Virus record (IMG/VR): IMGVR_UViG_2687453508_000006
Direction: 5' to 3' (one strand)
DNA length: 64,000 nt
From: a virus
Taxonomy: Duplodnaviria > Heunggongvirae > Uroviricota > Caudoviricetes
In this document: positions 331 through 51,410 of the stretch, in pieces
How the letters are laid out: every line of letters begins with the position of its first letter
How positions within the stretch are numbered: the first letter of the stretch is position 1
Notes under the pieces: model-generated
Told to the model about the DNA's origin: nothing
The model's database searches: none
What the model saw: only the letters and a program-made list of their open reading frames with translations
Translations under genes and position numbers: made by a program

Positions 331-930
331 TCAGAACTTATAACCGACACCCACGATGAAACCGTCAGTGCGCCAGTCGCCACTGCCGGAGCCTTCATAA
401 GCAATATCAATGGCCACGGATTCGGTCGGGTTAAACTGCACGCCAGCCCCCCACGCCAGAGACGTGTTGCTGTGGCGACCGTCATCACTTCCGGTCAGCA
501 CATCGTGCGTTTTCCCCTTGTTGTCAGTTACGCGAAGATAATCCCCGGAGAAAGTCGACACACGGCTGTAAGCCACACCCGCCATCGCATACGCGCTGAA
601 CCATTCATTCACGCGCACAGACGGCCCCGCCATTACGCTGAACCAGCGGTTACGCACGGAATCTTCATGCCAGCGGGTATCGCTGTAACGGGTAAGCTGG
701 CGATTCTTGTCTCCTGCATAGCTGAATGACGTCACCAGCCCCAGCGTGTCCGTAAATTCATAACGGTATTTCACGTTAATCCCGTTAAGATTATCGCTAC
801 CGGGAGCGCTCGTCCGGGCATGAAGATACCCCGCGCTCAGCGTGGCCTGCTGCTCAGACGCCCATGCAGGCGCGCCGGATACGGCCAGACAGATGGCTGC
901 GGACAAAATGGCGGCATAAAGTTTACGCAT
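331..930 (-). CDS. lom: Lom/Ail-family outer membrane beta-barrel protein
   Basis: 199-aa ORF with signal peptide [24 protein letters not shown] and C-terminal ...IVGVGYKF; lambda lom position between J and stf. Confidence 0.85.
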
Positions 931-951
931 AATTACCTCTCGCTTTTCTGC

Positions 952-978
952 AATAAAAAAGGCGCCATTTCTGGCGCC
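952..978 (-). terminator. rho-independent terminator between J and lom
   Basis: Hairpin GGCGCCAGAAATGGCGCC followed by T-run on minus strand (plus-strand A-run 952-960). Confidence 0.45.
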
Positions 979-997
979 CGTATATGGGTTATAAAAT

Positions 998-3900
998 TCA
1001 GCTGATACTGATGCCTGCGGTGGCTTTCTTCATCACCACAACCAGCAAATCGCTGATACTTGCTGTGGGATACCAGTTATTCACCAGCCATGCTGACACC
1101 GAAAACTCCAGCGTCATGTGACCGTGACCGGCAGGCATATCAATAACGCCACTGTAAATCAGCGTATTATCCAGCGCGGTACGGTTATAAATTTCAGCAC
1201 CGTTTTTCCGCACTATCAGACGGCATGAGGAGTAAATATCAGTATGCTCTCTCTCTCATGTTTAGCGCCGCTGAATGCCACCGCCGGAATAACAATCTGC
1301 CGGTCAAACGGCTGATCGTCATAAACCCTGACGGTAATGGTCCCTGATGGCCACCGTTCCGGTGCACGGGAGTCCCGGGGGAAAGCTTTGCCCACTGTTT
1401 TAACGAGATCGCCTTCAATCTGGTTCGCGGACAGTTTTCCCAGAACCCGACAGTTCTCGTTAATCGTGACGTTGTTGAGCGTCCCGGAGTTCGCATTCAC
1501 ACTGCCACTGATATCCGCATTTTTAGCGGTCAGCTTTCCGTCTGATGTCAGGGAAAATGCCGGAGGATTGCCGCCACTGGTAATGGTGGGAGCCGTCAGA
1601 TATTTCAGGAACACTTCATTCATAAATATCTGATCGCCCTGACCAACAAACATCGGCTTTGTGTTGCCATTCGCAGGATTAATCATCGCAATCCTGTCTG
1701 CCGCCAGCAGCACCTGACTCTGCATTCCTGCTGGCGTATTCTCAATACCGGCACCGATACCCGCAATATAAAGGCGTCCGTCCTGCATCTGCTGCAGTTT
1801 CACGGCCCACATGCTGTTCAGGTTATTATTTGTATCAACCTGAACTTTCTGTATCTGCTGGATTGCCGCACTCTGATTTTCCAGTTTTTTATTGACGGTC
1901 TGCGTGATTTCATTGCTGACATTCGTAATGGACGTCCTGATTTCAGCCAGGTCCGGCGCAAGCTGACCGTTATCAATCTGCGTCCACAGCTCCTGGGCCA
2001 GATGTGTTTTCCCGATTTCTCCTTTGAAAAAATCCAGGTAACCTTCCGCATCATCGCTCGCCCGACCGACAGCCTCCACGAATGCCGATTTGCCAACAGT
2101 ATTCACACTGCGGATATAAAAATAATAATCATGGCCCGGTTTGATATTGATACTGGCAGCTATCCAGTACAGCGCCGAGCCAAGATAGCGGGCTGCGGTT
2201 TCAACCTGCCTGATATCCGCAATCCGCTTTTCCGAGAACCAGAACTCAAACTGTACCGTCGGGTCATAAACGGCAAGATGCGGCGTGGCGGTTATCTGAA
2301 AATAGCCCGGCGTCAGCTCAATCCGCGACGGTGCTGCCGGTGCGGCAATCCGGAAGGTGGTGGTGGCAGGTTCACCCTGCTGGCCATAGCTGTTTATCGC
2401 CCGCACCGTCAGGGTGTATTCCCCGAGCGGCAGGCCGCTGAAACGGTGCTCCGTGTCTGCGGTGATGGCGGTGGTCACCAGTCTGGCATCCGTTCCCTTA
2501 CCACTGGTCAGGCGCAGACTGAAGCGCACGCCCTTCACCACCCGCGGCGTGTCCCATTTAGCCTGCGCCAGATACTGGCCGTCAGCTGCACTCACCTCCA
2601 CCGTCAGGTGCTGTACTGCCGGTGGGATGACGCTGTTCAGGGAACCTGACTGCGGCTCAAAGCGGGCACCGTTATCCACGATGGCTTCTTTTTCCGGTAC
2701 GTGCTGCACCGCCGTGATGGCAAAGGTGCCGTCCGTGTTTTCCCGGACGGAGACACAGCGGAACAGGCGACGGCACAGTGACGGCAGGGAGAGTCCCCAC
2801 ACCCCGTATGTCTCCACACCATCAGGCAGGGTACTGACCTGTATCCGGTCCGGCGCGGGGTGTGCGGTGATGTCCACACTCACCGGCTTACCGCTGCCGT
2901 TAATCAGGTTCACCGTGGCGGCACCGGTCTCCGGCAGTGTCACCTCACGGTCCAGCGTCAGGGTGCGGCTGGCGGCATCGATGGACAGGACACGTCCGCC
3001 GGTCATGGTCCCGGCATAGTCGTTATCACAGATTTCAATAATGTCACCGGGTGTGTGACGCAGCCCCTGTGACCCAAGCGTGAAATCCACCGTCTGCGTT
3101 TCCAGCAGTCCGGTCTTTATCACCCACAGCCCGGCACGGTGGGCCTGACCGCGACTGGTGCAGCCGAACGCATCCATCTTCAGCAGGTTGCGTCCGTAGC
3201 GCAGTATGGCTTCCGGGTCTTCCACCAGTTCCGTGGAGGTCTGCCAGCCGTTCTGCGGGTCGGTGTAATTCACCTCCACCGCCGTGTGGCGGTCCTTCAG
3301 GGCGCTGAAGCTGTAGCGAAACCCCACGCCGTTATCATCCACCACCACATCACTGCTGGTGTAGGCCACACCACATCTGACGGACGGTCCTGCACAAACG
3401 TCAGCGTCTGCCCGTTCCATACCGGCATACAGCGCATCGCCGAGCAGAAATCACTGAGAACGTCCCACGCCTTACGCTGTTGTGACAGGTACGCATTGAA
3501 AGTCATCCGCGGCTCTGTGCCCCCGAAACCATCCGGGACCGTCTGGTCGCAGTACTGCGCAATGGCATACAGCGCCCACTTGTCCACATCCGCCGCCCCC
3601 AGGCGTTTTCCCATTCCGTAGCGCGGGTGGGTCAGCATGTCCCACAGGCACCAGGCAGGGTTGTTGCTGTATGCCGGTTTCAGGCTGCCGTCCCAGATGC
3701 CGCTGTACGTGCGTTTTTCCGGGTCATAGTTTGACGGTACCTGGATGATGCGACCGCGGATATGGTAGTTCACCGTCATCTGCTGACCGCCAAACTGCTC
3801 CGCATCCACCTGCAGCCCCACAATCGCCGTGTTCGGGTAGCACTGTTTCACATCGATGATTTCGGTGTATGACGACCAGAGCGTCTTATTCTGCAGCTGG

Positions 3901-4472
3901 TCCGAGGTGCTGTCCGCTGTCTCCCGGACCATCCGGATGTTAAAGGGCCGCTCAGGCAGATTATCCAGAATCACCGACGCCAGAAACTGCGAGGTGGTCT
4001 TGCCGTTAATGGTGACATCCTTTTCCGTCACCCAGTTACCGTTACGCTGCAACTGAATCAGCAGTCGGACAGAAGAGTGATTACGGTCGCCCTTTGAGGT
4101 GGTCTCCAACAGTGACTGCACCCCGAAGGTGACCCGCAGGCGGTCAATGTTCGCGGACGTAATGGTGCGCGTCACCGGTTTTGCCTTCGTCACTTCCACG
4201 CCCAGTCCGGTTTCAGCTCCGGAGGACTCAAAGCCTTCCGGTGGTGTCTGCTCCTGCTCCCCGGCACGCCAGACCGCGGTCACACCGTGTATCACGGGAT
4301 TGCCGTCCGTGTCCGTCAGTGGGGTTTTGTTCACCAGAATACTCTGCAGTCCCTTCACCGGACCTTCTATCGGTCCCTCACCAATCGCATCAATCACACT
4401 CATCATCTGCGTGGATTTGAGATTATCCTTCGCCTCACGAGGCGTGTGTGCCTTACCGCCACCTTTTCCCAT
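998..4472 (-). pseudogene. J: tail tip host-specificity protein J, disrupted by at least two frameshifts
   Basis: Start MGKGGGKAHTPREAKDNLKST at 4472; lambda-J-like sequence continues in three different frames (3297-4472, 1216-3420, 998-1213); shifts near 3350-3370 and 1216-1290. Confidence 0.8.
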
Positions 4473-4577
4473 ACAGCCTTCCCCTGAATAAATTAACCGC
4501 CACTTGCCATTCCGTACAGAAGTCGGATATCCTTCGCCCGAAAAGCATGAAACACATTTCTGCCATGCTAAAGAAAA

Positions 4578-4610
4578 CCCCGGTATCAGCAGATACCGGG
4601 GTTTTCTTTC
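4578..4610. terminator. bidirectional hairpin terminator in the I-J intergenic insert
   Basis: Perfect 10-bp stem CCCCGGTATC/GATACCGGGG with 4-nt loop flanked by A-run and T-run. Confidence 0.4.
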
Positions 4611-4710
4611 ATGCCCACCGATAATCCTGTTGGTTAAAACCGGTAATGGCATAAAAATTCTGAATATCTTCACATTTTCACACACTGACTGTGGCGCTTA
4701 TAATTTCGCT

Positions 4711-4808
4711 GCGTTAGTGTTTTTTTGCCCGAGTAACAAAAACAACTCCTTAACATTGATCTTCATTTGTCTGTCCCCGCAGCTCCGCGATCACTGCGGG
4801 ATTTTTTT
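4711..4808 (+). ncRNA. candidate small RNA (moron) between tail genes I and J
   Basis: Sigma70-like promoter TTCACA(4677-4682)-16 bp-TATAAT(4699-4704); terminator CCCGCAG..CTGCGGG + T8 at 4776-4808; no ORF; CA-rich core AACAAAAACAAC. Confidence 0.3.
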
Positions 4809-4813
4809 ATGTT

Positions 4814-5494
4814 TTATCCCTGTCGCCCGACAACCACGACCGTTCCGCCCCCGCCTTCATCACGGGTGCTGATGTCCTGGGATATACGGCGGGAGCCAAC
4901 CAGCATTTCCCCGTAAGGCACCGGCATCGGGTTCCCCTGGGCAATCATGTTATCCAGCGAGGAAAAGTACGTGTTCTGTCTGCCGTTATCCGTTGCGCGG
5001 TAATCCGGTGTTTTTGCCTTCGGGGCCAGCATCTGGGCCACACCGCCCAGAATCATGCTGGCTCCAAGTGAAAACAGCATCGTGGTGGCAGAAAAACCAC
5101 CGGCTGCCAGGGCTGAACCCCATAACGCCATTGATGCCCCGGCAGTGAAGAAAGAGCCCACGATGGCTGCCGCCCCCAGCACAATCTGCAGTCCACCCTT
5201 TCCGGCCCCGGCCAGTCGCGGCACAATATGGATGACCGTTCCCTCACCCAGCTGTTCGTGAAGACGGGCGTACACCGCCTCCGGTGCCGTGTCATAACCG
5301 GCAATACGTATCTGGTACCAGCCTTCGTTCATCTGACGGCGAAAGCCCGGCACCTGTAACGACAGCGCCCGGATGGCTTCCGCTGCCGTGTTCACATACA
5401 GGCTGAGGCGGCGGCCAAATCGTTGTAAATCCCCGTGAAGGCAGATACGTGCCAGTGGCGGTGACGCCAGGCTGAATGCGTTCGTCGTTGCCAT
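4814..5494 (-). CDS. I: tail assembly protein I
   Basis: 226 aa, MATTNAFSLASPPLARICLHGDLQRFGRR... resembles lambda gpI; RBS AGAGG upstream. Confidence 0.85.
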   Translation of the reverse strand: MATTNAFSLASPPLARICLHGDLQRFGRRLSLYVNTAAEAIRALSLQVPGFRRQMNEGWYQIRIAGYDTAPEAVYARLHEQLGEGTVIHIVPRLAGAGKGGLQIVLGAAAIVGSFFTAGASMALWGSALAAGGFSATTMLFSLGASMILGGVAQMLAPKAKTPDYRATDNGRQNTYFSSLDNMIAQGNPMPVPYGEMLVGSRRISQDISTRDEGGGGTVVVVGRQG

Positions 5495-6135
5495 TTTTCG
5501 GAATACCTCTCCCGTTTACTCAGTTGTTCAGGCAGATGGTGAAGCAGTTCACCGTTGCCGCAGTATATGGCGGCATGATTGGCCACCGATGCGCCAAAGC
5601 AGCACAGCAGGATATCGCCAGGCTGTGCGGAAGGCAGGGAAATCCTGTAAAAACCAGTCGCCTCCATATTGTCCAGGTACAGGTTCTGACCATTGCGCCA
5701 CCAGTCATCCTCACGCTCAAAATCCGGCATATCAGTCCCCGCCAGATGATAAGCATCCCGGAACAGCGTGTAACAGTCCGTCACCCCGTGCTCAAAGCGC
5801 CGTCCTGTCAGATGTGGCACACAGCGGAATTTGTGAATGTCACCCCGGCAGACCAGCCACCAGGGCAGTGCGCTTTTTATCTGCAGCCGCCGGTCAGCCT
5901 CGCTCAGCCAGGGCAGCCCACCGGGATGACTGTGGACCAGTGCCACAATCTCCCCCTGCATCTCTGCCCGCAGCCAGTCTTCCGGTGCGATACGAAAATA
6001 CGCCTCCGGCTCTGCAGAAATATTCACACAAGGGATATACCACTCCCCCTCCGGCGTGCTTATCACGAAGCCGCACGACTCCGCAGGCGCACACCGCCGG
6101 GCATGCGCCAGAATCGCTGATTCAGTCTGTGTCAT
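5392..6135 (-). CDS. K: tail assembly protein K (NlpC/P60-like)
   Basis: Start MTQTESAILAHARRCAPAESCGFV at 6135; lambda gpK-like; the ORF-track start at 6396 is an upstream extension. Confidence 0.8.
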   Translation of the reverse strand: MTQTESAILAHARRCAPAESCGFVISTPEGEWYIPCVNISAEPEAYFRIAPEDWLRAEMQGEIVALVHSHPGGLPWLSEADRRLQIKSALPWWLVCRGDIHKFRCVPHLTGRRFEHGVTDCYTLFRDAYHLAGTDMPDFEREDDWWRNGQNLYLDNMEATGFYRISLPSAQPGDILLCCFGASVANHAAIYCGNGELLHHLPEQLSKRERYSEKWQRRTHSAWRHRHWHVSAFTGIYNDLAAASACM

Positions 6136-6145
6136 AAACCGGGAT

Positions 6146-6844
6146 TTACTGCGAAAGTTTATTAATGGAAAGGAAACCGCCAAAATTAGCCACCATGCTG
6201 CGCATCTCACACCCGCGCATGCACTTGCTGCATCTGTCCTTACGGATATCCGTGGTGGGGTTGTCGAACTCATCCGCCACTGCCCCGCCCGTGTAACCAC
6301 ACTCATCAGAGCGGTAGGTCCACATACAGGTATTCGCCAGCATAATGCGACCGGGAAACAGCGCTCCGTCCGTCTCCGTCGGTGTTGCCAGCACAAACGA
6401 GGCTGTCATGGCCGTCAGCTCTGACATCTGCTCCACCACCCAGCGGTCTCTCAGCTCCTGCTCCGGGTCCGCTTCCGGATTGCCCGCCACAAAATTCACC
6501 GCATCCAGAAAACGGGCATACACCCGGCGGCGGACCACCGTGGCACCCACCAGGCTCTGCAAATCCTCCGCCATCCCGGTGACAAGACCGAACAGATTGG
6601 ACACCGTCAGCGACGGGCGGGCACTGCTGCCCTTCCCGTTCATCTCAAAGCCACTGCCGTCAATCGGGTATACCTGATATTGCCGCCCCTGCCAGGTGAC
6701 CGCCTCCCCTTTTTCATTCAGCTCATTACAGAAAAAATACCGCTCACCGCCCTGCACCGTCAGGTCGATTTCCCAGAGCACCACCCGCGGTGACTGCTCT
6801 GACTTAACCGACTCGTTCAGGCTTTCTTCATGAATATTCTGCAT
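6146..6844 (-). CDS. L: minor tail protein L
   Basis: Start MQNIHEESLNE... overlapping M stop (ATGA); C-terminus ...NFGGFLSINKLSQ as in lambda gpL. Confidence 0.85.
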   Translation of the reverse strand: MQNIHEESLNESVKSEQSPRVVLWEIDLTVQGGERYFFCNELNEKGEAVTWQGRQYQVYPIDGSGFEMNGKGSSARPSLTVSNLFGLVTGMAEDLQSLVGATVVRRRVYARFLDAVNFVAGNPEADPEQELRDRWVVEQMSELTAMTASFVLATPTETDGALFPGRIMLANTCMWTYRSDECGYTGGAVADEFDNPTTDIRKDRCSKCMRGCEMRSMVANFGGFLSINKLSQ

Positions 6845-7185
6845 CAGTTCACCACCTGCTCTATCGTGCAACTGAAATCACTGTACCGGGCATTATCCGT
6901 GACACTCCACTCACGGCACACAACCCTCACCGTCCGGTTATGTTTCGGCGGTCGCCACAAAAAGGCACGGTAACCACCATGCCAGGATAAAAATTCATCC
7001 AGCCAGCGCCGGGTTGACTCATCCGTCACCCGGAACACCGCCTGAAACGTCTTCAGTTGAGGATTCAGCCCTGTGGGGCGGCGCTGTTCATAACCGTCAC
7101 CAAACCGCACCCTCACCACCGACGGCTTCTCACTCACCTGCATCCCTTCACGCGGGACCAGATGCAGCGTTTTTATCTCAGCCAC
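6844..7185 (-). CDS. M: minor tail protein M
   Basis: 113 aa, lambda gpM-like, between H and L. Confidence 0.85.
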   Translation of the reverse strand: MAEIKTLHLVPREGMQVSEKPSVVRVRFGDGYEQRRPTGLNPQLKTFQAVFRVTDESTRRWLDEFLSWHGGYRAFLWRPPKHNRTVRVVCREWSVTDNARYSDFSCTIEQVVN

Positions 7186-10100
7186 TCAGCATTCCTCCGT
7201 CACGTCGCATGGACAGCATCACCGCCTGCACCCGCTGGTCAATCAGCTGCACAAGACTGCCTGCCGCCTCCGGCCCTATCTGTCCGTTAGCCCCGTCATT
7301 CTGAATGGCAATGTGGTAGACCGGGGAATACACCAGACCAGCACTGCCGTTCATACTGCCCACGGCGCGTACGCCCAGCGAGCCATCCGCCGCCCGGGTC
7401 AGGGGCATAATAGCTTCAGGTCCGGCTTCCCCCATCAGCCCGGCCCCTTTTGCAAACGCAAAGTACGTGGGCGTGTCCACAATGCTGTTGCTGTACGCGC
7501 TCAGGTTTGCCGAGGTATACACGCCGCCTTTTGCATTGGCCACCGCTCCGCCCAGCCAGTCACCAATGCTGCCGAGAAATCCTCCCGCACCGGACATACC
7601 GTTTGCCGCCGTCTTAATTCCGTTGACAATCGCGGCATTCATAAGAACTTTTGATATTTCCTGCAGTACGGATGAGGCCCAGCTGCGCCATTCCACTTTA
7701 TTTCCGTTCAGCATCTCCGTGATGTTATTCACCATCCCTGAGATACCCTCCGTCGCCAGCTGTGCTGCCTGTGAGGCGTAATCGGACGCATTATCCACCC
7801 AGTTACTGAATCCCTCCTGCAGCCCTTTCTGCCAGTCCGCACGCTGCACATCCGATTCGGCATAAAAGACTGCCTGGTCCTTAAGGCGTTCGCTCAGATA
7901 CTGCGCGTTCTGTGCCAGCGCCTGTCTGTAAAAATCCTCACTGATATCCCCGGTCTGATACTGAGACTGAAGGTCCGCATCCTTCTGGCGGAAGCTGTCG
8001 CGGATCTGCTGCAACTCCCGCATGCGTTCCCTGGCTCGTTCCCCCTGCCCGTACCCCAGCAGTTCAGATTCATTTGATGCACGCGCAGCCACATTATCAT
8101 TCTTCAGGGTCTCTTCCCGGTACCGCAACTGCTCCCGGATTTTTTGCTGGTCAATCAGGGCCGCATTGCGCAGCAGTTCCTGCTTCTGTATCTCCGACAG
8201 GGTTTTCAGTTCACCCAGCGCTGTCTGGTACTTCAGCTTCGCCAGCTCCGTGTTCTGACCGGCCAGTGCCAGTTGCTCTTTCTGCTGCTTCAGCAGCCGG
8301 GAAAAACTGTCTTCCGCTTTTTCCGTCTCTGATTTTCCACCCCGGGATTTGGGTTTATTCACCTCGTTATTGCGCCAGGCTTCCAGGGCATTACTGATAT
8401 AACGTTGTCTCGCCTCCTGATACGGATCCCCCACAAAACCGAGGTCATCCGCCGCATACCCCAGTCGGACGCGCTCTTTTTCTTCCCCTTTCAGTCTGGA
8501 CAGGGCCAGCTCACGCTCTGTTTTTGTCAGGGCACTCTGCTGTTTATCATCCAGAGTGGCCTGTGGCAGCCGTAACGGCACATTCACCAGTCCCTGCCGC
8601 TGCTGAAGCAGTTCATTCCCCAGCCCCAGCAGACGGTTGAATTCCGTATACTGACCGTTCATAACCAGCATGGACTGGTACACCTTATTCTGCTCTGCCG
8701 CCTGCTGACGAATTAACGCCACACGACGGTCTTCCAGCCCGGCAAGCACATCCTGAATGGACTGCGCTTTTTCCTGCATCTGTGCCAGACGGGACTGCTC
8801 AACGGCAAGCTGCTCTGTTGCCTGAGCAAGCCCTTCCGTTACGGTCTTCACCGATGTCAGATGGTTTATCATGAATCCGTCACCGGTCGTCCAGCCCGGG
8901 TTCGCCAGAACATACTGATATCCTGCGATTTTTTCCTGCAGGGATTTCACCCGACTGGCCTGTTCATCAATCAGCCGGTTCTGCTCTGTCAGCGCCGCCC
9001 GTGTTCGTCCTTCATTATCTGAGGCTTCAGGCAAAGACATTGACGGCGTTTTATGCGCGATTTCATCTATCGTCAGTGCATACTGGCGCGCAGACTCCCT
9101 GGCCTGCTCCTGATTCTGGTACAGCGTGTACCATGCTGCAGCCCCCAGCATCACCAGTCCGGGTACGCCACCAACCAGCCCCAGCGCACCGCTCATCAGA
9201 CGTGAGCCCACCGCCGTTGTACTGTTCAGCGCATTCTGGGCGGCGCTTCTGGCAGCAATATTTCTGTTCAGGCGTTCCTGTGTGGCCGCCAGACGGGCCT
9301 CTGCAGCAATCTGCATCTCCGTCCCGCGGGCTGCCGCCACGGCCTGCTGAGCACGGTACACGGCTGCCCTTGCCCGCGCCGTGGCAATCTGCGTTCCCCT
9401 GAACTGTGCTTCCGCCAGTGCAACTTCATTACGTGCAGCCGTCACAAGTCCTGCCGTGGCAGACATCGCTCCGGAGGCCATATTGCCAAAGTACCGGGCA
9501 ACCCCGACGGCAACCAGCGCGCCCACGGCTGTTGCCACATTATCAATCTGTCCGGCAACACCGTTCAGCATGCCGGAGAGCGTTTTTGTCACCCCGCTGG
9601 CCTCATTCGCACCGCCCACCCAGGCCATAAAGGCGTTTTCCACCTTTGTGATACTACTGGAAACCGTTTCCGGCATGGCCGCATATTCATCACGTAATAT
9701 CCCCAGCTGGCTGATTAACGCGGGGACCACTTTATCCGCTGTCAGTTTTCCGTCATCCGCCATTGCCTTCAGATCTTTACGGGCCACGCCCATACCCGCA
9801 GCCAGTGCACGTACGATCCGGTCACCACTTTCATTGACCGAATTAAACTCCTCACCACGCAATACACCCTGCGCCAGCGCCTGACTGAACTGGGTGATCA
9901 CCGAGCCCGCCTCTGCCGTACTGGCACCGGAGATTTTCAGCCCTGTCGAAATGGCCTCCGTCACCTTCAGCACATCATCAGCACTGTAACCATATTCACG
10001 CATCGAGGCAGCCGAACGGGCAAACAGGGCCGCATTATCCGAAAATGCGGTGCCTGTCCGCTGGCTGATATCCATCAGCACTTTCTGTGATGACGCAAAT

Positions 10101-21127: not shown

Positions 21128-21355
21128 ATGTCATCGAAAAACCGGCCCCGCAGAACAACAACCCGCAACATCCGATTTCCAAACCAGATGATTGAACAAA
21201 TTAACATCGCTCTTGACCAGAAAGGTTCAGAAAATTTTTCTGCGTGGGTCATTGAATCTTGCCGCCGGGAGCTGGCAGCAGACATAAAATATGCCCGTCA
21301 GTTGACTATAAAAAAGAATGATACACAGTATGCTCTGCGATGGCTGTTCATATAA
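21128..21355 (+). CDS. ylcI: YlcI/YnfO-family small protein (DUF3950-like)
   Basis: 75 aa MSSKNRPRRTTTRNIRFPNQMIEQINIALDQKGSENFSAWVIE...; plus-strand gene inside late region. Confidence 0.65.
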   Translation: MSSKNRPRRTTTRNIRFPNQMIEQINIALDQKGSENFSAWVIESCRRELAADIKYARQLTIKKNDTQYALRWLFI

Positions 21356-21718
21356 CTATTTCTTTATATTGCTGAATTTATAAAAACTCACAGACATTAG
21401 CTGTATTAATTCCGAATTGAAATAATCAGCCATATAGAATAAAAATAAAGCATAACAATAATAATCTTCTACCCAATCAGTACATTACTGCTGTGACTCC
21501 AACACGGCAGTTTTTTTATTGAACAGATTCCAGTTTCTTCCACCATCGCACCGGACGGGCGACCATGAGGGGAGAACGCCGCGCTCCGTTTACGCGGTAA
21601 ACCCCGGTGTGTATCGTTTTTTGATTATCCCCGCACACTCTCGCAGAGGAGTCTCCCTGTCGGGCTGCGGTCTCTGTTAATGCAGGAATACGGCGACGAT
21701 ACGGCGCATCAGCAAAAC

Positions 21719-22187
21719 TTAGTTCAGGCACTGAGTGCGGATATAGTCCTGTGCCCCTTCCAGCTGCTTCTGCATTGTCATCAACCGTTCTCTGAGGATG
21801 AAATAATCCCGTTCAGCGGTGTCTGCCAGTCGGGGGCCGGTTGCATTATCCACGCCGGAGGTGCCGGTGGCTTCACGCACGGTACCGGAGCAGGTGGCGT
21901 TGATCCGCAGGCGCTTACGACCAGCGGCAACATCAGCACGCAGAGTTTCATTTTCAGCTCTCGCATCGGCTAACTCCCTCGAGTATTTTGCATCGAGCGC
22001 CAGCAACATCACGCTGGCGCACCTGCATGTCAGTAATGGTGGCATTCGCCTGTTCCAGCTCTCTGGCTTTTTTATCGCGCTGCGCTTTGTAGGTGAGCGC
22101 GTTGTCACGGTAATGGTTTGTTGCCAGCCACAGCGCACCATAGCCAACCGCCAGGACAATAATCACCACACACAGAACACGGTTCAT
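21719..22187 (-). pseudogene. Rz: i-spanin Rz, frameshifted in this copy
   Basis: N-terminal ORF 21954-22187 and C-terminal ORF 21719-22159 in different frames; extra C near 22000 relative to intact copy at 38864-39331. Confidence 0.7.
21781..21966 (-). CDS. Rz1: o-spanin lipoprotein Rz1 embedded in Rz
   Basis: 61 aa, lipobox LVVSAC then Pro-rich region, +1 frame inside Rz. Confidence 0.6.
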   Translation of the reverse strand: MRELKMKLCVLMLPLVVSACGSTPPAPVPCVKPPAPPAWIMQPAPDWQTPLNGIISSSENG

Positions 22188-22194
22188 CTCTCTT

Positions 22195-22329
22195 TCACCC
22201 CACCAGTCCCGATAACGTCAGGACTCGCCAGGCGGTGGAAAAGAAAATGGCAACCAGCATGACTAAAAATGAAATGCCGACAAGTACACAGAGGCTCTTC
22301 ACCAGCGTTATGAGTTTATCTGATATCAT
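22195..22329 (-). CDS. small hydrophobic ORF (44 aa) immediately upstream of Rz
   Basis: [44 protein letters not shown]; ends 7 nt before Rz start. Confidence 0.25.
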   Translation of the reverse strand: MISDKLITLVKSLCVLVGISFLVMLVAIFFSTAWRVLTLSGLVG

Positions 22330-22511
22330 TAGCCACCCCATCAATCCGCCTTTGTTATTTTCCCTTTGCCTGTATCAGCCAGGACAAAATCAATCAGCAT
22401 ATTCGCTTCATTTACCAGCGTACGGATTTTTGATACATGCGCGGCTTTAACCTGTTTCCACTCATTCAGCCCGGTAGCAAACACACTGGCAATGTTTTTA
22501 TCCGTTTCATG

Positions 22512-22904
22512 TCAGCACAAAGCCTGGTTGAGTTCTTCCATCACGCTCATTTTACGGGGATTAACGACAAAACCCTTCGTCCAGTACTCGTAAAGAACAT
22601 CGTCGCACTCTTCCTGATACCGGATGACCTTATCGCGGATTTCGGGTTTTACTTTGTTGGGATTAATGGTTTGTAGCCAGCCGGCAAGTTTTCGAAGTGG
22701 CATGGACACCATATTGCGTTGTTTCCCATCCTCAGCAACCATAACGATTTCCGTTATAGTTGACGCAAAACGCTGTCTTAACTTAGCCAACTGTGATTGC
22801 CAGGCCAGCCCCATCCCCGCAACGACAGGTTTCATGGGAACGTATGGTTTTTGGTTAACTACATAAAGAGAGTTGCCGTGAAACGGCACGGCCATCATAT
22901 TCAT
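22512..22904 (-). pseudogene. antirepressor-like protein (P22_AR N-domain-like), truncated in this copy
   Basis: 130-aa ORF vs 189 aa at 39485-40054; 6-bp deletion near 22850 and frameshift near 22515. Confidence 0.5.
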
Positions 22905-23172
22905 CGGTTATTTCCTTTTAGTGATGAACCTTGTCTCACAGGAATCCAGCCCACAGAAAGGCACCGACAGCCAAACCGGTATCCTCAAGGGTCATCCTGA
23001 AAGGTTCTGTGTTGTGAGATGCGCGTGAGATGCGCAGAAATGACAAAGGCATCATTACGGTGCCTGAGTTAAACAACTGCTTTGACTTTATTCACTTACA
23101 TTTTGCCAATTTGCAGGATTTCGTGTTATCCGTCCATGTAAGCAAACCTCATTTTTCAGCAAAATATTCTGC

Positions 23173-23706
23173 TTATCTGTCGATTCCCCAGCACGCCAGC
23201 GCGCTCTCCTGGTCACGACGGGATACCTGACCGTAACAGTTATTTGAGCGAATACGGCAGTCCCTGCCACCGTCCTTAATCCACCAGCGAATCGCTTCGC
23301 AGGCACCTTTTCGATCTCCTGCATTAATCCGTCTGTAAAACGTCGACGGGAAACACTTACCGGGGCCAATGTTGTACGGACAGAATGACGCGATCCCCGC
23401 TTTCTGGGGTTCGGTCAGCGGCACTCTGATGTTTTTCTCCACCCATGCCAGCGCCTTATCACGCTCAATGGCGTTAACCCGGTCGCATTTTTCCTTCGAC
23501 AGCTTCATGCCAGGAATAACAGGCTTACCATCCCCCCGGGTGGCTCCACGGCAGATGGTCCAGATACCCGCACCATCACGGTATGCTGTGGTGTGGTTAC
23601 CTTCCTTTTCATCCAGAAACTGGTCGAGGATTTCAGGCGCAGACGCCCCTGCACCAATCAGCGCCAGAACGGCAGCCGACAGGCCGTATCTGATTTTTGC
23701 GTTCAT
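23173..23706 (-). CDS. R: SAR endolysin (phage lysozyme, GH24-like)
   Basis: 177 aa, N-terminal signal-anchor-release segment LSAAVLALIGAGASA then lysozyme core. Confidence 0.85.
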   Translation of the reverse strand: MNAKIRYGLSAAVLALIGAGASAPEILDQFLDEKEGNHTTAYRDGAGIWTICRGATRGDGKPVIPGMKLSKEKCDRVNAIERDKALAWVEKNIRVPLTEPQKAGIASFCPYNIGPGKCFPSTFYRRINAGDRKGACEAIRWWIKDGGRDCRIRSNNCYGQVSRRDQESALACWGIDR

Positions 23707-23769
23707 GGATATTTATCAGGGTTTATCGATTTCAAATCCCTGGATATGTTAAGTCTTCAGGCCAGCGGT

Positions 23770-24166
23770 CTCTCAGCTCCTGCTCCGGGTCCGCTTCCGG
23801 ATTGCCCGCCACAAAATTCACCGCATCCAGAAAACGGGCATACACCCGGCGGCGGACCACCGTGGCCCCCACCAGGCTCTGCAGGTCCTCCGCCATCCCG
23901 GTGACCAGACCGAACAGATTGGACACCGTCAGCGACGGGCGGGCACTGCTGCCCTTCCCGTTCATCTCAAAGCCACTGCCGTCAATCGGGTATACCTGAT
24001 ATTGCCGCCCCTGCCAGGTGACCGCCTCCCCTTTTTCATTCAGCTCATTACAGAAAAAATACCGCTCACCGCCCTGCACCGTCAGGTCGATTTCCCAGAG
24101 CACCACCCGCGGTGACTGCTCTGACTTAACCGACTCGTTCAGGCTTTCTTCATGAATATTCTGCAT
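23770..24166 (-). pseudogene. L: L gene 5' fragment, 3'-truncated at the duplication junction
   Basis: ORF 23732-24193 = L N-terminal ~133 aa fused after ...ELRDRW to 20 codons from the R-upstream region. Confidence 0.7.
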
Positions 24167-24507
24167 CAGTTCACCACCTGCTCTATCGTGCAACTGAAAT
24201 CACTGTACCGGGCGTTATCCGTGACGCTCCACTCCCGGCACACACCCCTCACCGTCCGGTTATGTTTCGGCGGTCGCCACAAAAAGGCACGGTAACCACC
24301 ATGCCAGGATAAAAATTCATCCAGCCAGCGCCGGGTTGACTCATCCGTCACCCGGAACACCGCCTGAAACGTCTTCAGTTGAGGATTCAGCCCTGTGGGG
24401 CGGCGCTGTTCATAACCGTCACCAAACCGCACCCTCACCACCGACGGCTTCTCACTCACCTGCATCCCTTCACGCGGGACCAGATGCAGCGTTTTTATCT
24501 CAGCCAC
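24166..24507 (-). CDS. M: minor tail protein M (copy 2)
   Basis: 113 aa, one substitution vs 6844-7185. Confidence 0.8.
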   Translation of the reverse strand: MAEIKTLHLVPREGMQVSEKPSVVRVRFGDGYEQRRPTGLNPQLKTFQAVFRVTDESTRRWLDEFLSWHGGYRAFLWRPPKHNRTVRGVCREWSVTDNARYSDFSCTIEQVVN

Positions 24508-27500
24508 TCAGCATTCCTCCGTCACGTCGCATGGACAGCATCACCGCCTGCACCCGCTGGTCAATCAGCTGCACAAGACTGCCTGCCGCCTCCGGCCCTA
24601 TCTGTCCGTTAGCCCCGTCATTCTGAATGGCGATGTGGTAGACCGGGGAATACACCAGACCAGCACTGCCGTTCATACTGCCCACGGCGCGTACGCCCAG
24701 CGAGCCATCCGCCGCCCGGGTCAGGGGCATAATAGCTTCAGGTCCGGCTTCCCCATCAGCCCGGCCCCTTTTGCAAACGCAAAGTACGTGGGCGTGTCCA
24801 CAATGCTGTTGCTGTACGCGCTCAGGTTTGCCGAGGTATACACGCCGCCTTTTGCATTGGCCACCGCTCCGCCCAGCCAGTCACCAATGCTGCCGAGAAA
24901 TCCTCCCGCACCGGACATACCGTTTGCCGCCGTCTTAATTCCGTTGACAATCGCGGCATTCATAAGAACTTTTGATATTTCCTGCAGTACGGATGAGGCC
25001 CAGCTGCGCCATTCCACTTTATTTCCGTTCAGCATCTCCGTGATGTTATTCACCATCCCTGAGATACCCTCCGTCGCCAGCTGTGCTGCCTGTGAGGCGT
25101 AATCGGACGCATTATCCACCCAGTTACTGAATCCCTCCTGCAGCCCTTTCTGCCAGTCCGCACGCTGCACATCCGATTCGGCATAAAAGACTGCCTGGTC
25201 CTTAAGGCGTTCGCTCAGATACTGCGCGTTCTGTGCCAGAGCCCTTCTGTAAAAATCCTCACTGATATCCCCGGTCTGATACTGAGACTGAAGGTCCGCA
25301 TCCTTCTGGCGGAAGCTCGCGGATCTGCTGCAACTCCCGCATGCGTTCTCTGGCTCGCTCCCCCTGCCCGTACCCCAGCAGTTCAGCATCATTCGACGCA
25401 CGCGCAGCCGCATTCTCATTCTTCAGGGTCTCTTCCCGGGATCGCAACTGTTCCCGGATTTTTTGCTGGTCAATCAGGGCCGCATTGCGCAGCAGTTCCT
25501 GCTTCTGTATCTCCGTCAGGGTTTTCAGTTCACCCAGCGCTGTCTGGTACTTCAGCTTCGCCAGCTCTGTATTCTGACCGGCCAGTGCCAGTTGCTCTTT
25601 CTGCTGCTTCAGCAGCCGGGAAAAACTGTCTTCCGCTTTTTCCGTCTCTGATTTTCCACCCCGGGATTTGGGTTTATTCGCCTCGTTATTGCGCCAGGCT
25701 TCCAGGGCATTACTGATATAACGTTGTCTCGCCTCCTGATACGGATCCCCCACAAAACCGAGGTCATCCGCCGCATACCCCAGTCGGACACGCTCTTTTT
25801 CTTCCCCTTTCAGTCTGGACAGGGCCAGCTCACGCTCTGTTTTTGTCAGGGCACTCTGCTGTTTATCATCCAGAGTGGCCTGTGGCAGCCGTAACGGCAC
25901 ATTCACCAGTCCCTGCCGCTGCTGAAGCAGTTCATTCCCAGCCCCAGCAGACGGTTGAATTCCGTATGCTGACCGTTCATAACCAGCATGGACTGGTACA
26001 CCTTATTCTGCTCTGCCGCCTGCTGACGAATTAACGCCACACGACGGTCTTCCAGCCCGGCAAGCACATCCTGAATGGACTGCGCTTTTTCCTGCAGTTT
26101 TGCACCCGACTGGCCTGTTCATCATCTGAGCCGCCTGCCTGGTTCTGCTCTGTCAGCGCCGCCCGTGTTCGTCCTTCATTATCTGAGGCTTCAGGCAAAG
26201 ACATTGACGGCGTTTTATGCGCGATTTCATCTATCGTCAGTGCATACTGGCGCGCAGACTCCCTGGCCTGCTCCTGATTCTGGTACAGCGTGTACCATGC
26301 TGCAGCCCCCAGCATCACCAGTCCGGGTACGCCACCAACCAGCCCCAGCGCACCGCTCATCAGACGTGAGCCCACCGCCGTTGTACTGTTCAGCGCATTC
26401 TGGGCGGCGCTTCTGGCAGCAATATTTCTGTTCAGGCGTTCCTGTGTGGCCGCCAGACGGGCCTCTGCAGCAATCTGCATCTCCGTCCCGCGGGCTGCCG
26501 CCACGGCCTGCTGAGCACGGTACACGGCTGCCCTTGCCCGCGCCGTGGCAATCTGCGTTCCCCTGAACTGTGCTTCCGCCAGTGCAACTTCATTACGTGC
26601 AGCCGTCACAAGTCCTGCCGTGGCAGACATCGCTCCGGAGGCCATATTGCCAAAGTACCGGGCAACCCCGACGGCAACCAGCGCGCCCACGGCTGTTGCC
26701 ACATTATCAATCTGTCCGGCAACACCGTTCAGCATGCCGGAGAGCGTTTTTGTCACCCCGCTGGCCTCATTCGCACCGCCCACCCAGGCCATAAAGGCGT
26801 TTTCCACCTTTGTGATACTACTGGAAACCGTTTCCGGCATGGCCGCATATTCATCACGTAATATCCCCAGCTGGCTGATTAACGCGGGGACCACTTTATC
26901 CGCTGTCAGTTTTCCGTCATCCGCCATTGCCTTCAGATCTTTACGGGCCACGCCCATACCCGCAGCCAGTGCACGTACGATCCGGTCACCACTTTCATTG
27001 ACCGAATTAAATTCCTCACCGCGCAACACACCCTGTGCCAGCGCCTGGCTGAACTGGGTGATCACCGAACCCGCCTCAGCCGTACTGGCACCGGAGATTT
27101 TCAGCCCCGTGAAATGGCCTCCGTCACCTTCAGTACATCATCAGCACTGTAACCATATTCACGCATCGAGGCAGCCGAACGGGCAAACAGGGCCGCATTA
27201 TCCGAAAATGCGGTGCCTGTCCGCTGGCTGATATCCATCAGCACTTTCTGTGATGACGCAAATTCATCGGATGACTGTGATGCCTGTTTCAGACGGGCAT
27301 TCACGGCTCCACTCATCCGCCAGTGAAATCAGGTGTCCGGTGGCAAAGGCACCGGCAAATGCGCCAGCCATTCCGACAGCAGAACCGCGAATTTCCGTCA
27401 ACTGGCTGTTCAGTTCAGCCAGGGCACGTCGCTGCTCCCGGGCTGCCGCAGCGGCCTGACGCCCGCCATTCTGCAGGGTCCGGTAATATTCACTGCCCAT

Positions 27501-38273: not shown

Positions 38274-38501
38274 ATGTCATCGAAAAACCGGCCCCGCAGA
38301 ACAACAACCCGCAACATCCGATTTCCAAACCAGATGATTGAACAAATTAACATCGCTCTTGACCAGAAAGGTTCAGAAAATTTTTCTGCGTGGGTCATTG
38401 AATCTTGCCGCCGGGAGCTGGCAGCAGACATAAAATATGCCCGTCAGTTGACTATAAAAAAGAATGATACACAGTATGCTCTGCGATGGCTGTTCATATA
38501 A
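38274..38501 (+). CDS. ylcI: YlcI/YnfO-family protein (copy 2)
   Basis: Identical to 21128-21355. Confidence 0.65.
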   Translation: MSSKNRPRRTTTRNIRFPNQMIEQINIALDQKGSENFSAWVIESCRRELAADIKYARQLTIKKNDTQYALRWLFI

Positions 38502-38863
38502 CTATTTCTTTATATTGCTGAATTTATAAAAACTCACAGACATTAGCTGTATTAATTCCGAATTGAAATAATCAGCCATATAGAATAAAAATAAAGCATA
38601 ACAATAATAATCTTCTACCCAATCAGTACATTACTGCTGTGACTCCAACACGGCAGTTTTTTTATTGAACAGATTCCAGTTTCTTCCACCATCGCACCGG
38701 ACGGGCGACCATGAGGGGAGAACGCCGCGCTCCGTTTACGCGGTAAACCCCGGTGTGTATCGTTTTTGATTATCCCCGCACACTCTCGCAGAGGAGTCTC
38801 CCTGTCGGGCTGCGGTCTCTGTTAATGCAGGAATACGGCGACGATACGGCGCATCAGCAAAAC

Positions 38864-39331
38864 TTAGTTCAGGCACTGAGTGCGGATATAGTCCTGTGCC
38901 CCTTCCAGCTGCTTCTGCATTGTCATCAACCGTTCTCTGAGGATGAAATAATCCCGTTCAGCGGTGTCTGCCAGTCGGGGGCCGGTTGCATTATCCACGC
39001 CGGAGGTGCCGGTGGCTTCACGCACGGTACCGGAGCAGGTGGCGTTGATCCGCAGGCGCTTACGACCAGCGGCAACATCAGCACGCAGAGTTTCATTTTC
39101 AGCTCTCGCATCGGCTAACTCCCTCGAGTATTTTGCATCGAGCGCAGCAACATCACGCTGGCGCACCTGCATGTCAGTAATGGTGGCATTCGCCTGTTCC
39201 AGCTCTCTGGCTTTTTTATCGCGCTGCGCTTTGTAGGTGAGCGCGTTGTCACGGTAATGGTTTGTTGCCAGCCACAGCGCACCATAGCCAACCGCCAGGA
39301 CAATAATCACCACACACAGAACACGGTTCAT
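38864..39331 (-). CDS. Rz: i-spanin Rz (intact copy)
   Basis: 155 aa, N-terminal TM helix [22 protein letters not shown] then coiled-coil periplasmic domain. Confidence 0.8.
38926..39111 (-). CDS. Rz1: o-spanin Rz1 embedded in Rz
   Basis: 61-aa lipoprotein ORF in +1 frame within Rz. Confidence 0.65.
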
Positions 39332-39484
39332 CTCTCTTTCACCCCACCAGTCCCGATAACGTCAGGACTCGCCAGGCGGTGGAAAAGAAAATGGCAACCA
39401 GCATGACTAAAAATGAAATGCCGACAAGTACACAGAGGCTCTTCACCAGCGTTATGAGTTTATCTGATATCATTAGCCACCCCA

Positions 39485-40054
39485 TCAATCCGCCTTTGTT
39501 ATTTTCCCTTTGCCTGTATCAGCCAGGACAAAATCAATCAGCATATTCGCTTCATTTACCAGCGTACGGATTTTTGATACATGCGCGGCTTTAACCTGTT
39601 TCCACTCATTCAGCCCGGTAGCAAACACACTGGCAATGTTTTTATCCCGTTTCATGTCAGCACAAGCCTGGTTGAGTTCTTCCATCACGCTCATTTTACG
39701 GGGATTAACGACAAAACCCTTCGTCCAGTACTCGTAAAGAACATCGTCGCACTCTTCCTGATACCGGATGACCTTATCGCGGATTTCGGGTTTTACTTTG
39801 TTGGGATTAATGGTTTGTAGCCAGCCGGCAAGTTTTCGAAGTGGCATGGACACCATATTGCGTTGTTTCCCATCCTCAGCAACCATAACGATTTCCGTTA
39901 TAGTTGACGCAAAACGCTGTCTTAACTTAGCCAACTGTGATTGCCAGGCCAGCCCCATCCCCGCAACGACAGGTTTCATGGGAACGTATGGTTCGCCATT
40001 ATGGTTAACTACATAAAGAGAGTTGCCGTGAAACGGCACGGCCATCATATTCAT
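39485..40054 (-). CDS. antirepressor-like protein (P22_AR N-domain-like), intact copy
   Basis: 189 aa MNMMAVPFHGNSLYVVNHNGEPYVPMKPVVAGMGLAW...; sits between R and Rz as in some Stx-type phages. Confidence 0.5.
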   Translation of the reverse strand: MNMMAVPFHGNSLYVVNHNGEPYVPMKPVVAGMGLAWQSQLAKLRQRFASTITEIVMVAEDGKQRNMVSMPLRKLAGWLQTINPNKVKPEIRDKVIRYQEECDDVLYEYWTKGFVVNPRKMSVMEELNQACADMKRDKNIASVFATGLNEWKQVKAAHVSKIRTLVNEANMLIDFVLADTGKGKITKAD

Positions 40055-40324
40055 CGGTTATTTCCTTTTAGTGATGAACCTTGTCTCACAGGAATCCAGC
40101 CCACAGAAAGGCACCGACAGCCAAACCGGTATCCTCAAGGGTCATCCTGAAAGGTTCTGTGTTGTGAGATGCGCGTGAGATGCGCAGAAATGACAAAGGC
40201 ATCATTACGGTGCCTGAGTGTTAAACAACTGCTTTGACTTTATTCACTTACATTTTGCCAATTTGCAGGATTTCGTGTTATCCGTCCATGTAAGCAAACC
40301 TCATTTTTCAGCAAAATATTCTGC

Positions 40325-40858
40325 TTATCTGTCGATTCCCCAGCACGCCAGCGCGCTCTCCTGGTCACGACGGGATACCTGACCGTAACAGTTATTTGAG
40401 CGAATACGGCAGTCCCTGCCACCGTCCTTAATCCACCAGCGAATCGCTTCGCAGGCACCTTTTCGATCTCCTGCATTAATCCGTCTGTAAAACGTCGACG
40501 GGAAACACTTACCGGGGCCAATGTTGTACGGACAGAATGACGCGATCCCCGCTTTCTGGGGTTCGGTCAGCGGCACTCTGATGTTTTTCTCCACCCATGC
40601 CAGCGCCTTATCACGCTCAATGGCGTTAACCCGGTCGCATTTTTCCTTCGACAGCTTCATGCCAGGAATAACAGGCTTACCATCCCCCCGGGTGGCTCCA
40701 CGGCAGATGGTCCAGATACCCGCACCATCACGGTATGCTGTGGTGTGGTTACCTTCCTTTTCATCCAGAAACTGGTCGAGGATTTCAGGCGCAGACGCCC
40801 CTGCACCAATCAGCGCCAGAACGGCAGCCGACAGGCCGTATCTGATTTTTGCGTTCAT
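40325..40858 (-). CDS. R: SAR endolysin (copy 2)
   Basis: Identical to 23173-23706. Confidence 0.85.
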   Translation of the reverse strand: MNAKIRYGLSAAVLALIGAGASAPEILDQFLDEKEGNHTTAYRDGAGIWTICRGATRGDGKPVIPGMKLSKEKCDRVNAIERDKALAWVEKNIRVPLTEPQKAGIASFCPYNIGPGKCFPSTFYRRINAGDRKGACEAIRWWIKDGGRDCRIRSNNCYGQVSRRDQESALACWGIDR

Positions 40859-40908
40859 GGATATTTATCAGGGTTTATCGATTTCAAATCCCTGGATATG
40901 TTAAGTCT

Positions 40909-41253
40909 TCAGGCCAGCGGTGGAGTCTTCAGAGAACCCGTAATTATTCCCGGTAGTTTTCCTCTGTAGGTTATCAACACATCCTGCGCCTCTAAAATTA
41001 CGGGACGCTTTTCCGGTAACGGACCATCCCCTTCACATAACCCGGCAGCAACATCCATGAAAAACTGCTTCGCCTGCTTTTTCGCCTCAGCTTCGTAAAA
41101 CTCCAGCGTGGCACCTTCAGTACGGTCAAGACTAATCGCCACATGTGGCAACAACAACGACGGATGCCCGCCAATTTCAAGTGCCACAGTAACAGCAATC
41201 TTATCCGGGTAATTATTTATCTCTTTAACAACCAGTTCGTATTTTTTCTTCAT
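40909..41253 (-). CDS. hypothetical soluble protein inserted between holin S and endolysin R
   Basis: 114-aa ORF MKKKYELVVKEINNYPDKIAVTVALEIGG...; no TM segment; right duplication junction (40914-40921) lies in its last codons. Confidence 0.45.
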   Translation of the reverse strand: MKKKYELVVKEINNYPDKIAVTVALEIGGHPSLLLPHVAISLDRTEGATLEFYEAEAKKQAKQFFMDVAAGLCEGDGPLPEKRPVILEAQDVLITYRGKLPGIITGSLKTPPLA

Positions 41254-41257
41254 CGCT

Positions 41258-41473
41258 TTAGTCTCCCCGCGCCGTCTTACGGCGGTCCTCCCTGATTTTG
41301 AAATACAGGTTAGTCAGATACGTCAGCAGGCCAAACAGCAGACTCCCCAGTACACCTATTGCCACCCACTGGGACGGAGAGACTTTGTCCAGCAGTTGCA
41401 GTAACCAGTATCCCGTCCCTACCGCTGACGTGGTGTATGACACACCTGTTGTGATTTTTTCCATCTGGTACAT
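41258..41473 (-). CDS. S: class II holin (phage-21 S-type pinholin) with dual start motif
   Basis: [71 protein letters not shown]; two in-frame ATGs at 41473 and 41464; paired with a SAR endolysin. Confidence 0.8.
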
Positions 41474-43476: not shown

Positions 43477-43628
43477 TATTCCTCCCGGCCGGGATAGTGT
43501 ATTAAATCAGATATGGAGTGGGCTGGCTGTAGTCCGGAAGCCTGAATGACACTCGGGGACTACAGCCCAAGAAATGAAAAAAGGCCACGCAGTTGCGCAG
43601 CCTGATAAACCCTGGTTAAAATCCACAC

Positions 43629-43690
43629 GATAACAACACAACAATATCAGTATCTCATGCTATTGCCCGAACCCATTCGGGCATTTTTTA
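43629..43690 (+). ncRNA. candidate small RNA convergent to the moron transcript
   Basis: Putative promoter TTGCGC(43593)-18 bp-TAAAAT(43617-43622); CA-rich ACAACACAACAA; plus-specific terminator GCCCGAA-ccca-TTCGGGC + ATTTTTTA (43665-43690); no plus-strand ORF. Confidence 0.25.
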
Positions 43691-43693
43691 CCC

Positions 43694-43719
43694 ATAAAAA
43701 AGCCCCTCCGGAGAGGGGC
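43694..43719 (-). terminator. rho-independent terminator ending the terB-moron transcript
   Basis: GC-rich hairpin GCCCCTC-cgga-GAGGGGC followed by T-run on minus strand. Confidence 0.5.
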
Positions 43720-43886
43720 ATGTTTGCATGCACATTCTTTTTCTTGCATGGTGCCGGGTGCCTCCCGGTGAATTCAGTATCAGCACCTGAATCCGCGATT
43801 ATCCCATATACCTGGTTGCTGATCGCCCCTCCGCACAGGGGGATTCACCATGCAGAAGTGTTTTTAATAAACAGCAAACAAAAAAA

Positions 43887-51400: not shown

Positions 51401-51410
51401 GTGTTACTCC

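Follow-up and report, generated by a model that had tools for sequence, protein, structure and literature searches.

An antisense promoter–terminator unit between prophage tail genes I and J matches the small RNA gene pasB

Introduction

PasB (pathogenicity-associated sRNA B) is an already known small RNA, described experimentally in 2021 and phylogenetically in 2026. In the enteropathogenic strain E2348/69 (EPEC O127:H6) it was reported as an 83-nt RNA of prophage PP6 (NC_011601.1, 1466343..1466261, minus strand; Northern probe AATCCCGCAGTGATCGCGGAGCT, Table S6 of Pearl Mizrahi et al., Sci Adv 2021, PMC8550237), with a Northern band that agrees with the 83-nt size from RNA-seq coverage, a U-tract of 7 and Hfq-dependent stability (RNA-seq log2 fold changes of −6.8 and −2.4 in Δhfq). 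The same study found more PasB under a 'non-activating' condition (overnight static LB) than under an 'activating' one (exponential DMEM) and, by RIL-seq, 37 unique partners (30 in coding sequences or 5′ UTRs, 4 in 3′ UTRs or intergenic regions, and 0 sRNAs), with PasB as RNA2, that is, in the sRNA position, in 0.99-1.0 of chimeric fragments. No target motif for PasB was reported from the authors' MEME analysis (PMC8550237), and we found no validated target in the published PasB literature, that study included. An allele named 'PasB-2' differs at nt 27, the passage that describes it not naming the new base (Zhu, Shabalina & Storz, bioRxiv 2026).

Other prophage RNAs and gene units invite comparison. 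EcOnc22, EcOnc23 and EcOnc24 are Hfq-CRAC sRNAs of Sakai prophages Sp15, Sp14 and Sp11, respectively (Tree et al., Mol Cell 2014, PMC4104026), and EcOnc22 was detected as a ~85-nt Northern band and loses stability in Δhfq (PMC4104026). The anti-sRNAs AgvB and AsxR (RF02702 and RF02703) resemble PasB in being prophage-encoded and Hfq-binding and in ending at an intrinsic terminator, and resemble the PasB family in having a 3′ part that is conserved and a 5′ body that varies; they differ in their length of 51-60 nt, their conserved ~42-nt 3′ domain, their place beside the PR′ moron site in sRNA dyads, and their mode of action, in which a 5′ end that mimics an sRNA target acts on sRNAs. Lambdoid protein-coding morons (Juhala et al. 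2000, as cited in PMC4104026) are extra units with their own promoter and terminator between two late-operon genes.

Here we analyse a 64,000-nt stretch of a Caudoviricetes genome (IMG/VR record IMGVR_UViG_2687453508_000006; hereafter, the window), in which a reading of the sequence alone had proposed a free-standing sRNA gene between tail genes I and J.

Results

The window's prophage is of the lambdoid Sakai Sp12/PPompW type, with positions 483-8813 being 100% identical to Sakai prophage Sp12. The tail genes around the unit are on the minus strand:

4814-5395, minus strand: tail assembly gene I (Sakai ECs_2236, mapped via the 100% identical Sakai locus)
3297-4472, minus strand: 5′ part of host-specificity gene J, disrupted here (Sakai annotates J as ECs_2235, 2234 and 2233)

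With the I stop codon ending at 4814 and J starting at 4472, the spacer (4473-4813) is 341 bp long, compared with 60 bp in lambda and 240 bp in E2348/69, in agreement with the ~340-bp insert that had been claimed between the two genes. The unit lies within this spacer on the plus strand, antisense to the tail genes, and its RNA would end 5 nt from the I stop codon. J itself is broken at 1216-4472 (minus strand), where two ORFs (3297..4685 and 1216..3420) overlap in different frames and Sakai has three coding sequences; the prophage is therefore probably defective, though pasB is intact.

The unit and its surroundings within the spacer comprise the following features:

4726-4808, plus strand: PasB sRNA, literature extent of 83 nt, with A at nt 27 (82/83 identical to NC_011601.1 1466343..1466261)
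4711-4808, plus strand: primary transcript predicted from the promoter, ~98 nt (presumed TSS 6-9 nt after the −10, at G 4711 or G 4713)
4677-4704, plus strand: sigma-70 promoter (−35 TTCACA at 4677-4682, 16-nt spacer, −10 TATAAT at 4699-4704)
4776-4808, plus strand: Rho-independent terminator (stem CCCGCAG/CUGCGGG at 4776-4782/4794-4800, 11-nt loop, A, then U7 at 4802-4808)
4656-4677, no strand assigned: 22-bp block AATTCTGAATATCTTCACATTT with dyad TCTGA-N6-TCACA, near-invariant across copies, a candidate site for a CRP/FNR-family activator
4570-4609, no strand assigned: 18-bp perfect hairpin with A-run and T-run flanks (stem 4570-4587/4592-4609), a bidirectional intrinsic terminator between the pasB promoter and J

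From ~4660 to the I stop codon, that is, from promoter through terminator, the window equals E2348/69 save for nt 27 (position 4752), which is the sole difference within PasB (A in the window, C in E2348/69), and the published Northern probe is the exact reverse complement of 4779-4801. E2348/69 has PasB in the syntenic place, antisense to the tail assembly gene and gpJ that flank it; promoter, terminator, position and orientation are identical in the two, whereas upstream of the promoter the window has a different spacer allele, the longer of the two (341 versus 240 bp), with another terminator hairpin. Judged by sequence and synteny, the promoter–terminator unit is the O157 copy of the already published PasB. 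Expression, size, Hfq dependence and mRNA partners have been shown by others for an allele that differs by 1 nt; expression in the O157 strain is what we infer. The sequence-only reading was thus right to call a free-standing sRNA gene, in that the near-identical PasB gives a Northern band, is lost in Δhfq and takes the sRNA side of RIL-seq chimeras (PMC8550237), and the transcript string that it quoted (GUUUUUUUGCCCGAGUAACAAAAACAACUCC) is present at 4719-4749. No Rfam 15 family was found for the region at the gathering threshold or at E ≤ 10 (sub-threshold terminator look-alikes only), and RefSeq has no annotation at the pasB spacer in ~1600 genomes (queried with 331 of the 341 spacer bases). 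The multicopy prophage sRNA HnrS (EcOnc10-12) was considered as an identity and rejected, its locus being different.

The promoter (TTCACA-16-TATAAT) fits 11 of 12 consensus positions in a promoter scan, as expected from the strong plus-strand promoter that had been called by eye, and is 100% identical in E2348/69, where PasB RNA is expressed; its start, placed earlier at 4669, moves to 4677, where the −35 hexamer with the 16-nt spacer begins, 4669 being a second TTCACA upstream. The region 4000-5400 contains three promoter-like matches, compared with 0.6 ± 0.7 in shuffles. Across all alleles the −10 is kept as TATAAT, AATAAT or TATCAT and the −35 is variable. A sigma-54 promoter and the use of the upstream TTCACA as a −35 were ruled out on spacing or sequence. 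Relative to the literature extent, the 98-nt form has an extra 15 nt at its 5′ side, including a U7 run (4720-4726) that RNA folding predicts to be able to pair with the A-rich tract downstream. The published coverage-based 5′ end maps to 4726, which is 22 nt after the −10 and ~15 nt beyond the sigma-70 start; at such a distance from the −10, either the coverage-based end would be imprecise or the RNA processed, and a search by eye found no convincing promoter that would start an RNA at 4726.

Upstream of the −35, the 22-bp block holds the only sequence in the 64 kb that comes within one mismatch of TGTGA-N6-TCACA. Its dyad fits 9 of the 10 positions of the CRP core, with flanks that also match. 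Among 13 copies of four sequence types, variation is confined to two N6 positions and one base of the 5′ flank, and the distance from dyad to −10 is fixed. With a TSS 7 nt after the −10, the dyad centre falls at −44.5, 3 bp off the canonical class II position of −41.5. From this pattern we hypothesize that the block is a binding site for an activator of the CRP/FNR family. The greater abundance of PasB in static overnight LB cultures, compared with exponential growth in DMEM, would be consistent with CRP/FNR-type or stationary-phase control, and the conserved dyad offers a testable idea for this difference.

At the other end of the unit, an intrinsic terminator was predicted on the plus strand only (terminator scan) and its stem was confirmed by RNA folding; all alleles share its 3′ stem arm and its T-run unchanged. 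The stem had been read correctly from the sequence, and the tail reported with it as T8 is an A followed by T7. The unit is thus bounded by a promoter of its own and a Rho-independent terminator, whose U-tract is 7. The separate bidirectional hairpin noted earlier is likewise present, with arms that lie at 4570-4587 and 4592-4609 rather than within 4578-4610, predicted folding energies of −29.3 kcal/mol (z = −8.6) on the plus strand and −30.2 kcal/mol (z = −7.3) on the minus strand, and a U-run on both strands. At the corresponding place, the short spacer allele (E2348/69, Sp11/14/15) has a different hairpin (CAGGCACC..GGTGCCTG followed by TTGTTTTT), which is a terminator in the tail-gene direction only. 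Both unrelated I–J spacer alleles thus hold a strong tail-direction terminator between the pasB promoter and the J start (seen also at ~1437-1470 of locus L005 and ~1010-1045 of locus L002).

The comparison with Sakai extends the family. Because the EcOnc coordinates (Table S2 of PMC4104026) refer to an older Sakai record, an offset was calibrated on AgvB1 (+137..146 nt); it holds against NC_002695.2 at 1.94 Mb, and EcOnc06/STnc100 at 3.49 Mb is consistent with it. With the offset applied, the EcOnc22-24 peaks (three of three) fall inside PasB-like transcripts; without it, they seem to lie on the upstream hairpin. All three sRNAs are in the I–J spacers of Sp15, Sp14 and Sp11, on the strand antisense to the tail genes, and these spacers carry a 75-78% identical copy of the pasB unit. 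EcOnc22-24 share with the window's PasB the I–J spacer, the antisense orientation, the upstream block, the −10, the AUCUUC core and the terminator, and have, relative to it, deletions of 6 nt and 1 nt and several changes within the seed. The window's pasB corresponds to the Sp12 copy, which is absent from the 63 Hfq-bound Sakai sRNAs listed in PMC4104026. By these shared sequence features, PasB (EPEC) and EcOnc22-24 (EHEC) are one locus family, so that two separate literatures can be joined; the link is not drawn in Pearl Mizrahi et al. 2021, in Zhu et al. 2026 or in a 2021 review.

The unit is also common: a sensitive search with the 161-bp unit found it in 1,808 of 5,426 complete E. coli genomes (about a third, close variants included), at 5,511 places (median 2 per genome, up to 10), and 147 phage records carry it, mostly Stx-converting phages and 'PPompW' prophages. 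An alignment of 11 unit copies yielded four sequence types, in which the −10 region, the U-run, the A-rich tract and the UCC and AUCUUC cores are invariant, and the −35 hexamer and most of the RNA body vary. The region upstream of the promoter occurs as two unrelated alleles that are freely combined with the RNA types (for example, the ST131 copy has the long upstream allele and a type-2 RNA body), and the locus is therefore mosaic.

Two further elements of the RNA bear on its function:

4747-4771, plus strand: putative seed, PasB nt 22-46, UCCUUAACAUUGAUCUUCAUUUGUC (from RIL-seq target helices; allele SNP at 4752, nt 27)
4735-4746, plus strand: CA/A-rich tract AAC AAA AAC AAC (AACAAAAACAAC), PasB nt 10-21 (four A-R-N triplets; candidate Hfq distal-face contact)

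For 11 PasB partners, windows given by the RNA1 read coordinates in RIL-seq Table S3 were searched for ungapped Watson–Crick/GU helices with PasB nt 1-52, with mononucleotide shuffles as the null, a weaker null than dinucleotide shuffles; this approach was used instead of whole-window duplex prediction, which gave unrealistically long, loop-ridden duplexes. All 11 best helices fall within PasB nt 22-50, and a random helix would do so 65% of the time, so that 11 of 11 has P ~0.009. The summed helix score was 247, versus 204 ± 9 for shuffled targets (z = 4.8; 0 of 300 shuffles reached the score), and most single helices were not individually significant against shuffles. The strongest examples include napF (16 bp, −10 to +5, over the Shine–Dalgarno (SD) sequence and the GUG start; P ≤ 0.002), yijD (11 bp over the SD; P = 0.02) and tolC (11 bp across the AUG; P = 0.03); the caiF helix lies at codons 2-4, those of gshA and trmJ fall on SD regions, and the 11-bp rpoS helix is inside the coding region. 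Among the eight windows that contain a start codon, six pair within −17..+11 of it. The seed is thus complementary to experimentally linked mRNA partners, mostly over RBSs and start codons, and these RIL-seq targets suggest that nt 22-46 serve as an anti-RBS seed; independently, and on grounds of conservation, Zhu et al. (bioRxiv 2026) proposed a seed immediately before the terminator. The AUCUUC core of the seed (nt 34-39) is invariant across alleles, and the seed is unpaired in the centroid fold; overall, the RNA shows no more structure than shuffled sequences do (z ~−0.9). Within the window itself, 10-nt seed complements occur once (51406-51415, minus strand), with ~3 expected by chance as an estimate.

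The single EPEC/O157 difference falls inside this seed. A27 leaves napF with a helix of 12 bp in place of 16 bp, and yijD and caiF lose their best helices; with nt 27 inside the seed and helices shortened by the A allele, the EPEC target list may not transfer to O157, and the SNP predicts strain-specific target sets.

Discussion

We consider it highly probable that pasB with A27 is an autonomous 'RNA moron', placed antisense between I and J, whose RNA pairs in an Hfq-dependent manner with the RBS and start regions of host mRNAs. In the proposed mechanism, the sigma-70 promoter would be active in the lysogen and yield an RNA of ~83-98 nt ending in the Rho-independent hairpin and U7. Hfq would most likely bind the U-tail, and probably also the (A-R-N)4 tract, and would present the unstructured nt ~22-46, rich in anti-Shine–Dalgarno and anti-start-codon sequence (CUCCUU, AUCUUCAU), to mRNAs. 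The seed would then pair over the RBS or first codons of host and accessory genes (napF, yijD, tolC, caiF, gshA and trmJ) and at a site inside rpoS, with translational repression and/or decay of the targets as the expected result, the direction of regulation being presumed. Given helices over RBSs and starts and an unpaired seed, the simplest mechanism would be the canonical one of Hfq-assisted pairing that occludes the RBS.

The alternative that survives best is suggested by the position of the gene. As pasB is transcribed against the direction of the late tail operon, its RNA has perfect complementarity to the I–J spacer of the late polycistronic mRNA, and its main job could be in cis: to modulate I/J expression or mRNA processing in lytic growth, or to be silenced by late transcription, with trans targets secondary. 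The I–J position and orientation are kept in every allele despite divergence of the RNA body to ~73% identity, the PasB 3′ end abuts the I stop codon, and a tail-direction terminator always accompanies the unit, all of which speaks for this account. However, PasB is made in lysogens, in which the late genes are silent; it has 30 partners in coding sequences or 5′ UTRs on Hfq; pasB is intact in this prophage, in which J is broken; and the complementary stretch, which ends >230 nt upstream of where J starts, covers no RBS. PasB could have a cis-antisense effect on the late I–J mRNA, but that this should be its main role appears unlikely.

The second alternative is the one raised by the sequence-only reading, that the CA-rich tract mimics the target of GcvB or another sRNA with a GU-rich seed and titrates it, as AgvB does. 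The AACAAC of the tract can form 6-7 contiguous bp with GcvB R1, and a prophage anti-sRNA, AgvB, is present in the same window. Against this, the best PasB helix over the whole of GcvB is equalled by 36% of shuffled PasB sequences, whereas the 14-bp helix of the window's AgvB, the positive control, is equalled by 0.7% of shuffles; the pairing check that had been suggested thus leaves PasB no better than chance. In RIL-seq, none of the 37 PasB partners is an sRNA (PMC8550237), and for GcvB the tabulated count of sRNA partners is 1, with gcvB::sroC seen in Table S3 (PMC8550237). Nor did an Rfam search recover AgvB or AsxR at the unit, either at the gathering threshold or at E ≤ 10, the window's AgvB match being at 43628-43689. 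PasB differs from these anti-sRNAs in length (83-98 nt), in locus (the tail operon) and in its 3′ domain, and lacks both their extended GcvB complementarity and, in RIL-seq, any sRNA partner. With a GcvB helix at shuffle level and zero sRNA partners, the sponge reading is not supported, and we regard it as very improbable. The tract itself is kept as A-rich in all alleles though its sequence differs, and none of the 11 target windows has its helix in it, the best pairings being downstream (nt 22-50). A-R-N is described as an Hfq-binding motif by Tree et al. (PMC4104026), and the tract, by its composition, is probably an Hfq contact.

Least credible of all is a small-protein gene (a 28-aa minus-strand peptide or a 122-aa plus-strand TTG ORF) or the decayed remnant of a former coding gene: open frames do exist at 4670..4756 (minus strand), 4504..4872 (plus strand) and 4767..4916 (plus strand), but none is conserved across the unit among the compared alleles, the minus-strand ORF (4756..4670) becoming ATG-TGA in E2348/69, the plus-strand frame being closed in the Sp15, ST131 and PhiR5_1 alleles, and allele indels not being multiples of three. 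The earlier view that the unit holds no credible ORF therefore stands, since the window's open frame is closed in other alleles, and the degenerate coding fragment that would have spoken against an sRNA gene finds no frame conserved across alleles.

Returning to the reading of pasB as an RNA moron, its likeness to protein-coding morons lies in being an extra unit with its own promoter and terminator between two late-operon genes and, like them, missing from lambda; it differs in that its product is a non-coding RNA and in that it is oriented against the operon. More tentatively, and with rather less than even confidence, we propose that a single modular family of 'antisense RNA morons' in the I–J spacer of lambdoid and Stx phages may include both PasB and EcOnc22-24 as alleles; in this family, the dyad and terminator would be frozen and the anti-RBS seed would diversify by mutation and recombination; the sRNA of each prophage might then be differently targeted, respond to nutrients or oxygen via a CRP/FNR-type factor and perhaps also act in cis on the late tail mRNA.

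The main value of these results is correct labelling, as pasB is missing from RefSeq annotation and Rfam 15. Beyond the published work, they add the PasB/EcOnc22-24 link and the observations on seed, promoter and alleles.

Several minor observations concern the rest of the window. A genuine anti-GcvB sRNA, AgvB, lies ~39 kb from pasB (43628-43689, plus strand; 96.5 bits), back to back with an STnc100-type sRNA (43690-43882, minus strand; 145.8 bits), and this pair is the convergent sRNA dyad of Tree et al. (PMC4104026). Two identical short units (~21453-21518 and ~38599-38664, both plus strand) end in CUGCUGUGACUCCAACACGGCAG followed by U7 and have no Rfam match; the first maps to the Sakai EcOnc10 locus, a match to HnrS by locus. 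EcOnc10 has been renamed HnrS, a 66-nt RNA that represses hha (PLoS Pathog 2026, PMC13502914). The lysis-gene block occurs twice at 99% identity (21282-23769 and 38428-41467), and a second set of tail genes (L/M/H region) starts from ~23762, with positions 5958-8296 of the Sakai Sp12 locus (L001) recurring at 23762-26096; the window therefore covers lambdoid prophages that are in tandem or recombined, and loses its collinearity with Sakai Sp12 past ~23.7 kb. Two prophage tRNA genes (44655-44728 and 44832-44904, minus strand) and a RalA antitoxin sRNA of a Rac-type ralR/ralA locus (62266-62444, minus strand; 225 bits) were also found.
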